Source: Escherichia coli (GTDB taxonomy: Bacteria > Pseudomonadota > Gammaproteobacteria > Enterobacterales > Enterobacteriaceae). Taken from it: DNA of 554 bases. Shown here piece by piece: positions 1-554 of this stretch (position 1 is its first letter; every line of letters begins with the position of its first letter). Made by a program: the position numbers and the translations under genes. The stretch lies in the NCBI RefSeq assembly GCF_003334765.1, contig NZ_QOWT01000112.1; one strand, 5' to 3'. The notes under the pieces were generated by a model. The model did no database searches and had not been told where the DNA came from. It saw only the letters and a list, made by a program, of their open reading frames with translations.

Positions 1-554
1 ATCACCAGGTCAGCCGAGAAGCCCAGGCACGCCAGGTCTTTCAGTTCATCACGGGTCATCGGGCCGGTGGTGTCCTGTGAACCTACAGAAGTCATTTTCG
101 GTTCGCAGTACGCGCCCGGACGAATGCCTTTCACACCGCAGGCACGACCTACCATTTTCTGCGCCAGCGAGAAGCCGCGATCGCTCTCAGCGACATCTTT
201 CGCCTGACGGAACACATCACTGTGCGGCAGGCCAAGTGCTTCACGCGCTTTGGTGGTCAGGCCACGCCCGATAATCAGCGGAATACGGCCGCCAGCACGC
301 ACTTCATCAATCAGCACGTCGGTTTTCAGTTCGAAGGTTGCCAGCAGTTCGCCGGTTTCGTGGTTACGCACTTCACCTTTGTACGGGTAAACGTCAATTA
401 CGTCGCCCATGTTCAGGTTAGAGACGTCGACTTCGATTGGCAGTGCACCCGCATCTTCCATCGTGTTAAAGAAGATTGGTGCAATTTTACCGCCGAGGCA
501 CAAACCACCGCCGCGTTTGTTCGGCACATGTGGAATATCATCGCCCATAAACCA
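1..554 (-). CDS. acnB: Aconitate hydratase B (aconitase 2 / 2-methylisocitrate dehydratase), internal fragment, partial at both ends; codon phase set by codons at 552-554 (Trp) down to 3-5 (Val), with positions 1-2 being the first two bases of the next codon
   Basis: Seen in sequence: the reverse complement reads as 184 sense codons with no stop across the full window, and codons are those preferred in enterobacteria (CTG Leu, CCG Pro, CGT Arg, GGC/GGT Gly, AAA Lys, GAA Glu). Established knowledge, from memory: the translated peptide matches E. coli AcnB at about residues 255-439, including the ...[28 protein letters not shown](M) segment at the start of catalytic domain 1. No alignment could be run; the residue numbering is approximate. 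Confidence 0.9.

Follow-up and report, generated by a model that had tools for sequence, protein, structure and literature searches.

The DNA analysed here, which we call the window (the whole stretch, 554 nucleotides long), is in itself an ordinary stretch of a well-understood enzyme gene, that of aconitase B (acnB), and we have high confidence that it derives from a second, island-borne copy of that gene in Escherichia coli. The best overall explanation, which we regard as probable, is that it represents an internal segment (codons 255–438) of a functional accessory second acnB, the last gene of a lactonase-MFS-citCDEFXG-acnB module. The first-pass annotation saw no novel system in the window; that judgement stands for the window in isolation, but not for the gene to which it belongs, which lies within an operon for which we found no description. 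Its implicit assignment to the housekeeping TCA-cycle locus is not supported, as all exact and 99.8% matches lie in a second acnB behind citG.

Identity of the window and of the acnB copy it represents

On the minus strand, positions 3–554 form a single open frame with no stops, and each of the remaining five frames contains 1–15 stops, bearing out the earlier description of one uninterrupted minus-strand frame. The 184-aa product is 100% identical (E = 1e-122) to residues 255–438 of E. coli aconitate hydratase 2 (PDB 1L5J) in a colinear alignment without gaps. It also matches NCBIfam TIGR00117 (acnB) at profile positions 246–428 and, through query residues 1–128, the Pfam model Aconitase_2_N (PF06434) at model positions 78–204 of 204 (E = 5.6e-56), confirming that the window is wholly internal to acnB. 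Its TIGR00117 score of 367 bits lies under the cutoff of 1287.2 only because the product is a fragment. The window comprises the following features:

Window 3–554, minus strand: acnB codons 255–438, from the reading frame, 1L5J and TIGR00117; the gene is intact, with 865 codons
Window 1–2, minus strand: first two bases of codon 439
Window 171–554, minus strand: AcnB residues 255–382, the C-terminal two-thirds of Aconitase_2_N (swivel, domain 4), from PF06434
Window 3–170, minus strand: AcnB residues 383–438, where the catalytic aconitase domain starts, as placed by matches of the complete island protein to aconitase/IPM-isomerase large-subunit models from residue 383 onwards
Window 63–80, minus strand: conserved S413-Q-D-T-T-G418 motif (SQDTTG), from the translation
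Window 78, 105, 135, 138, 147, 159, 231, 291, 339, 399, 453 and 477: the 12 synonymous differences from K-12, from base-by-base comparison

The SQDTTG motif presumably has the substrate-binding role that it plays in aconitases. Compared with AcnB, the window contains no frameshift, stop or insertion and no intergenic DNA; these defects, together with membership of a different protein family, were what the first-pass annotation had named as grounds for abandoning its call, and none was found. Rfam gave no match at E <= 1 on either strand of the window, no repeats were found in it, and a scan for promoter-like sites was empty, with one weak terminator-like match at chance level, in agreement with the earlier view that the window holds no promoter, terminator or small RNA. 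Open reading frames in alternative frames were discarded as genes, the longest being 65 aa and none having any support.

The allele was assigned against 5,426 complete E. coli genomes. A match to the window was present in all of them (5,426/5,426), and in only 50 did it reach at least 99% identity. Thirteen genomes matched at 100% and eight at 99.8%, and every one of these had two acnB places. An 11.3 kb query served to locate the module, and the module coordinates so obtained enclosed every one of the 13 exact and eight near-exact (99.8%) matches. In strains 746, SCU-109 and Santai, whose modules we inspected and found to agree in architecture, the window-matching copy was a second acnB directly downstream of citG and not the yacH-acnB-yacL gene, and an IS66 remnant follows the exact-match copies; these copies lie elsewhere than between yacH and yacL and are without the promoter and terminator of their own that mark the housekeeping gene. 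The window is an exact match to nt 763–1316 of the island acnB of strain 746 (window 3–554 corresponding to nt 763–1314). The collection as a whole held 35 extra acnB places, made up of 31 full and four partial modules. No exact match to the window occurred in the plasmid collection, which returned only chromosome-like records with housekeeping alleles at <=98.9%.

The first-pass annotation had expected near-100% identity to acnB of K-12 MG1655; the family was right, but the figure was lower, at 542/554 (97.8%), with all 12 differences third-position and synonymous. The best single-copy matches (99.5%) came from pig ETEC/O139 strains and were true housekeeping yacL-acnB-yacH loci. This nearest housekeeping allele differs from the window at three positions only (219, 339 and 453), and the differing positions identify the window as the 746-type island allele and not a sampled housekeeping allele. 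It is improbable that the window instead comes from an ordinary housekeeping acnB (yacH-acnB-yacL) of an E. coli lineage absent among the complete genomes: although the pig ETEC/O139 alleles are just three synonymous bases off, the window's protein segment is identical to K-12 AcnB, and acnB alleles recombine, so that the same tract could occur in some housekeeping gene, an exact match at the housekeeping locus was seen in 0 of 5,426 complete genomes, and the 13 exact and eight one-mismatch matches are all in the island module.

The complete island protein is an AcnB by the same measures. It scored 1716.2 bits against the TIGR00117 cutoff of 1287.2, and it has the AcnB-specific domain order, with Aconitase_2_N in the window product and catalytic-domain models from residue 383. 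It also keeps Cys710, Cys769 and Cys772 (outside the window; E. coli numbering), the three 4Fe-4S cluster ligands of AcnB. Compared with K-12 AcnB, eight of 865 residues differ (99.2% identity) against 84 nucleotide differences (3.2%), giving a dN/dS of 0.03 and identifying purifying selection. The island acnB is intact, and as part of the overall explanation favoured above we consider it likely that it is functional and encodes a normal aconitase B. Its product would be expected to have aconitase and 2-methylisocitrate dehydratase activity, and mRNA-binding capacity as an apo-protein. Judged by its sequence, the accessory paralogue is a bona fide AcnB that departs from the standard gene only in lying away from the housekeeping locus.

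Architecture, island setting and mosaicism of the module

The module is an IS-bounded unit of ~11 kb carried by about 0.6% of complete E. coli genomes (about 35/5,426), in which nine genes lie on one strand in the order lactonase, MFS, citC, citD, citE, citF, citX, citG and acnB. In the locus fetched from strain 746 (L001), it and its surroundings are laid out as follows:

L001 13620–13648: hairpin 3' of island acnB; the same sequence occurs in six other fetched loci (L003, L004 and L016–L019)
L001 13719–16316, minus strand: island acnB (WP_001596151.1), containing the exact window
L001 16342–21573, same strand as acnB: citC, citD, citE, citF, citX and citG
L001 21579–22928, same strand as acnB: MFS transporter
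L001 22960–23757, same strand as acnB: amidohydrolase (Amidohydro_2/LigI-type lactonase)
L001 23843, minus strand: operator-like palindrome
L001 23880–24605, divergent: GntR/HutC-type regulator

Intergenic gaps within the module range from -26 to +31 nt, and the nine genes are presumably co-transcribed. The six genes citCDEFXG are annotated as intact in strains 746, SCU-109, Santai, 10, ES1, SWHEFF_58 and SM107. Homology to the K-12 cit operon (97.8% identity) covers L001 16361–21567; it sets in 6 nt into citC and ends 19 nt short of the citG stop codon, and the module cit genes reach up to 98.8% DNA identity with the housekeeping operons of other E. coli. Neither citT nor citAB occurs inside the module, which has the MFS transporter and the GntR/HutC regulator instead. 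The junction with acnB is precise: the spacer between citG and acnB is 25 nt, with GGAG 8 nt before the acnB ATG, and homology to the K-12 acnB locus starts at the second nucleotide of the initiation codon (GTG in K-12, ATG in the island) and ends 23 nt past the stop, the K-12 promoter region and terminator both being missing from the island copy. A scan of the module for consensus promoters and terminators remained at chance level.

About 70 nt downstream of the island acnB stop lies a perfect hairpin with a 13-bp stem, AGAACTCCGTCTA-ATC-TAGACGGAGTTCT (full sequence AGAACTCCGTCTAATCTAGACGGAGTTCT), found in 7/7 E. coli module copies examined; this conserved element could be a terminator or the end of a mobile element. 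In strain 10 the MFS gene (L016 14081–15484) is annotated as 54 nt longer than in other carriers and overlaps the lactonase gene, probably through a difference in start-codon calling or a small sequence change.

The module behaves as part of a mobile island, with a patchy distribution (31 full and four partial copies in 5,426 genomes), flanks formed by IS66, ISEc38 or IS100 remnants, and insertion into at least three distinct flanking contexts, in regions of the pathogenicity-island type. In strain 746 the surrounding island is large and mosaic, with the kps capsule genes on one side of the module and a tyrosine integrase on the other, and malX/malY, Ag43 and toxin-antitoxin modules of the CP4 type are also present. 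The same island (L022 and L023; record 872000–975000) contains duplicated CP4-type blocks (cbtA/cbeA, antirestriction, radC, Ag43), the PAI marker malX/malY, sul2-ISCR2, a pap remnant, and an apparently defence-related block with genes for dGTPase, thymidylate synthase, MazG-like protein and DEAD-box helicase. Truncated modules, consisting of acnB, citG, citX and part of citF, occur in three genomes whose acnB is 100% identical to the window, which shows the operon to be decaying in some lineages:

NZ_CP106756.1 649570–655777: truncated module
NZ_CM128600.1 835803–841654: truncated module
NZ_CM128599.1 2219349–2225200: truncated module

The lactonase, transporter and regulator are foreign, and the cit and acnB parts are of Escherichia type. 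Divergence between module variants amounts to 1.5–3.9% in acnB and in patches of citC, citE, citF, citG and citX, against 0–0.8% in the lactonase, MFS and GntR genes, which are without a housekeeping twin. The modules of ES1 and SWHEFF_58 are almost identical, yet they are 65 bases apart in the 3' two-thirds of acnB, and the island acnB alleles have a block structure. In the 746-type allele, roughly nt 800–1300 are near-identical to the pig-ETEC housekeeping allele, and the window (nt 763–1316) falls in that stretch. The pattern of divergence, together with the blocks within acnB, indicates repeated recombination between island and housekeeping alleles. All island alleles nevertheless have in common their island-specific ends, an ATG-TTA-AAA start and a C-terminal RVIFPSVV. 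The island allele of SWHEFF_58 is evenly about 4.5% from housekeeping alleles; that it might be a plain housekeeping allele introduced by whole-gene conversion was considered and rejected, its best housekeeping match being 97.1%. In Santai and SM107 (L004 and L019), nearly all departures of the module from the 746 type are in citE (2.2%) and citC (1.6%), the genes equivalent to L001 19302–20210 and 20518–21573, respectively. Parallel to acnB, these differences indicate recombination tracts exchanged with the housekeeping cit operon.

Recurrence in other genera and the proposed pathway

The association of this lactonase with citrate lyase and aconitase genes is not confined to E. coli, and recurs with the following arrangements (a slash separates the regulator from the genes beside it):

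Enterobacter: GntR / lactonase-MFS-citCDEFXG, without acnB
Salmonella enterica subsp. salamae and Citrobacter amalonaticus: GntR / lactonase-CitMHS-citCDEF(X)G-acnB-oadGAB
Klebsiella oxytoca: lactonase-CitMHS-cit-oadGAB arrangement, with an AcnB-like gene, PrpF, two more aconitase-family genes and an Iso_dh gene upstream
E. fergusonii: GntR / lactonase-CitMHS, with a second lactonase-CitMHS-aconitase-PrpF cluster nearby
Enterobacterales metagenome contigs (L020, L021): GntR / lactonase-MFS cassette inserted at the housekeeping acnB-yacL locus
Pseudomonas and Paraburkholderia: regulator, MFS and lactonase only

The Enterobacter module is without acnB, so AcnB is not obligatory for the cassette. 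On one metagenome contig (L020 3–9351) the cassette lies between acnB and yacL, and on the other (L021 9079–16251) directly upstream of acnB; insertion at acnB-yacL is a possible route for linking acnB to the cassette. In K. oxytoca (L009/L010 1–8966), the run of aconitase, PrpF, aconitase, Iso_dh and AcnB-like genes upstream of lactonase-CitMHS-citCDEFG-oadGAB looks like a larger supercluster for the catabolism of tricarboxylate isomers. The second cluster of E. fergusonii (L011 13009–20795) comprises LysR, an unrelated beta-propeller lactonase (PF10282), CitMHS, an aconitase, PrpF and another aconitase, and lies about 2 kb from the cassette of GntR, Amidohydro_2 lactonase and CitMHS.

The module AcnB of S. 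salamae is 94.5% identical to that of E. coli, and the AcnB-like protein of K. oxytoca is only 72% identical to E. coli AcnB; the lactonase and CitE/F of the S. salamae module are 95–98% identical to their K. oxytoca counterparts. The module AcnBs form no single lineage, and the termini peculiar to the E. coli copy recur in none of the others, pointing to separate captures or to homogenisation within each host. Descent of the island acnB from the Salmonella/Citrobacter module AcnBs was considered separately and rejected, as the island N- and C-termini and spacers do not match.

The regulatory region is also common to these cassettes. A palindrome, AGTTGyATAGTCAACT (candidate GntR operator, AGTTGCATAGTCAACT), lies between GntR and the lactonase gene in all the enterobacterial cassettes and is absent from the remainder of the 484 kb of fetched DNA, in which about 0.3 occurrences would be expected by chance. 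It is found across eight taxa, with two copies in several:

L001 23843, minus strand: operator-like palindrome of strain 746
L007 9897; L009 9879; L020 3409; L021 9847: operator-like palindrome
L011 9874 and 9898; L012 9891 and 9914; L013 9885 and 9904: operator-like palindromes

This conservation supports a common regulator-operator pair and, with it, a common effector.

The lactonase belongs to Pfam Amidohydro_2 (PF04909, E = 1e-43), its nearest solved structures are 2FFI (E = 1e-67) and 4I6K, followed by LigI, and an alignment to LigI (4D8L) identified conserved HxH (DxHxH), DH and DWPH motifs. Against the 4-sulfomuconolactone hydrolase equivalog NF042924, the sole named NCBIfam equivalog, it scored 136.8 bits, well short of the cutoff of 500. 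The transporter is of the anion:cation-symporter type and scored under all NCBIfam cutoffs.

From gene content, the likely physiological role of the module would be fermentation of a tricarboxylate lactone. We propose a scheme in which the MFS transporter would import the lactone, at best guess isocitrate lactone; the lactonase would open it; operon-encoded AcnB would convert the resulting isocitrate to citrate by way of cis-aconitate; and citrate lyase would split citrate into acetate and oxaloacetate. An acnB inside the operon would allow aconitase to be co-induced with citrate lyase, independently of the housekeeping acnB promoter. Since ArcA represses that promoter and citrate lyase works anaerobically, a second acnB within the operon would be of benefit. 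Island AcnB and citrate lyase share 99–100% identity with the housekeeping enzymes and have presumably retained the same specificities, leaving isocitrate lactone as the simplest substrate, and aerobes with the transporter and lactonase only fit a product belonging to central metabolism. Plant, wine, urine and gut metabolomes are reported to contain isocitric lactone. We put forward tentatively, with distinctly less than even weight, the full reading of an undescribed enterobacterial pathway that ferments a tricarboxylate lactone of plant or dietary origin, in the simplest case isocitrate lactone, and for which several genera have repeatedly captured their own acnB as a co-regulated aconitase; isocitrate lactone as the specific substrate is likewise a possible more than a probable choice. 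Neither the module, nor a second E. coli acnB, nor an isocitrate lactonase turned up in full-text searches, whose coverage was incomplete and whose silence is weak evidence.

A competing reading accepts a real catabolic operon but assigns it another substrate, such as the hydroxycitrate lactones (hibiscus or garcinia acid), a pyrone or muconolactone tricarboxylate, or plain isocitrate or aconitate with the lactonase in a side job; we consider this quite possible and place it only somewhat short of even. In its favour, 2-pyrone-4,6-dicarboxylate and 4-sulfomuconolactone are the substrates of the closest relatives of the lactonase to have been characterised. K. oxytoca and E. fergusonii have, in addition, PrpF, further aconitases, an Iso_dh gene and another lactonase of unrelated type, hinting at a broader range of tricarboxylate isomers, and Enterobacter lacks acnB. 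However, the near-identity of island AcnB and citrate lyase to their housekeeping counterparts fits conversion of isocitrate through citrate to oxaloacetate and acetate, and the aerobic cassettes with only transporter and lactonase imply a product that enters central metabolism. It is very unlikely that the island acnB is a mere passenger, a duplicated housekeeping gene trapped between IS elements and functionally unconnected to its neighbours, since against the IS-bounded position in a highly mosaic island rich in pseudogenes, the three carriers with truncated modules and the Enterobacter cassette without acnB stand a precise junction (homology from the second start-codon base onwards, a new ATG, and a Shine-Dalgarno sequence within the 25-nt spacer), a dN/dS of 0.03 over alleles diverged by up to 4%, and the independent placing of acnB behind citG in S. 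salamae and C. amalonaticus, with the cassette adjoining acnB in three further contexts.

If the proposed pathway of tricarboxylate lactone fermentation is correct, the window is part of its dedicated aconitase. The module points to an uncharacterised catabolic cassette shared across genera, with a testable substrate hypothesis, and this cassette may open a nutrient niche to some E. coli lineages of the gut and of extraintestinal sites. The module also illustrates how a gene of core metabolism can be taken up by a horizontally mobile operon and, through recombination, stay close to the resident copy, and it calls for caution in annotation and in analyses of the MLST or pangenome type, as about 0.6% of E. 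coli carry two recombining acnB genes. We regard the surrounding operon as mildly novel and as a modestly interesting lead.

Comparison with known systems

The closest known relative of the island gene is acnB of K-12 (b0118, 1L5J), with which its product has in common a length of 865 aa, the domain order and the Fe-S cysteines, with 100% identity over the window segment. In contrast to the K-12 gene, which is monocistronic in the order yacH-acnB-yacL, the island copy closes a cit-type operon within an IS-bounded island, starts with ATG instead of GTG, has the island ends (L-K-E at the start and C-terminal RVIFPSVV) and is without the native promoter and terminator.

The lactonase resembles LigI and 4-sulfomuconolactone hydrolase (COG3618) in its Amidohydro_2 fold and its HxH, DH and DWPH motifs, and 2FFI is itself described as a 'putative PDC hydrolase'. 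Its match to LigI is nevertheless weak (E ~ 1e-24), and unlike the LigI group it adjoins genes for citrate lyase and aconitase, not for aromatic degradation.

Known enterobacterial citrate-fermentation clusters take the form citCDEFXG-citT with citAB/dpiBA in E. coli, and citS-oadGAB-citAB plus citCDEFG in Klebsiella and Salmonella. The E. coli module resembles them in its complete citCDEFXG set (97.8–98.8% DNA identity to the housekeeping operon), and at the protein level its CitE and CitF are 100% and 99.6% identical to those of the housekeeping citrate lyase; the Salmonella, Citrobacter and Klebsiella versions of the module also include oadGAB. The modules differ from these clusters in being without citT/citS and CitAB, and in having an MFS or CitMHS transporter, a lactonase, a GntR/HutC regulator with its candidate operator, and acnB.
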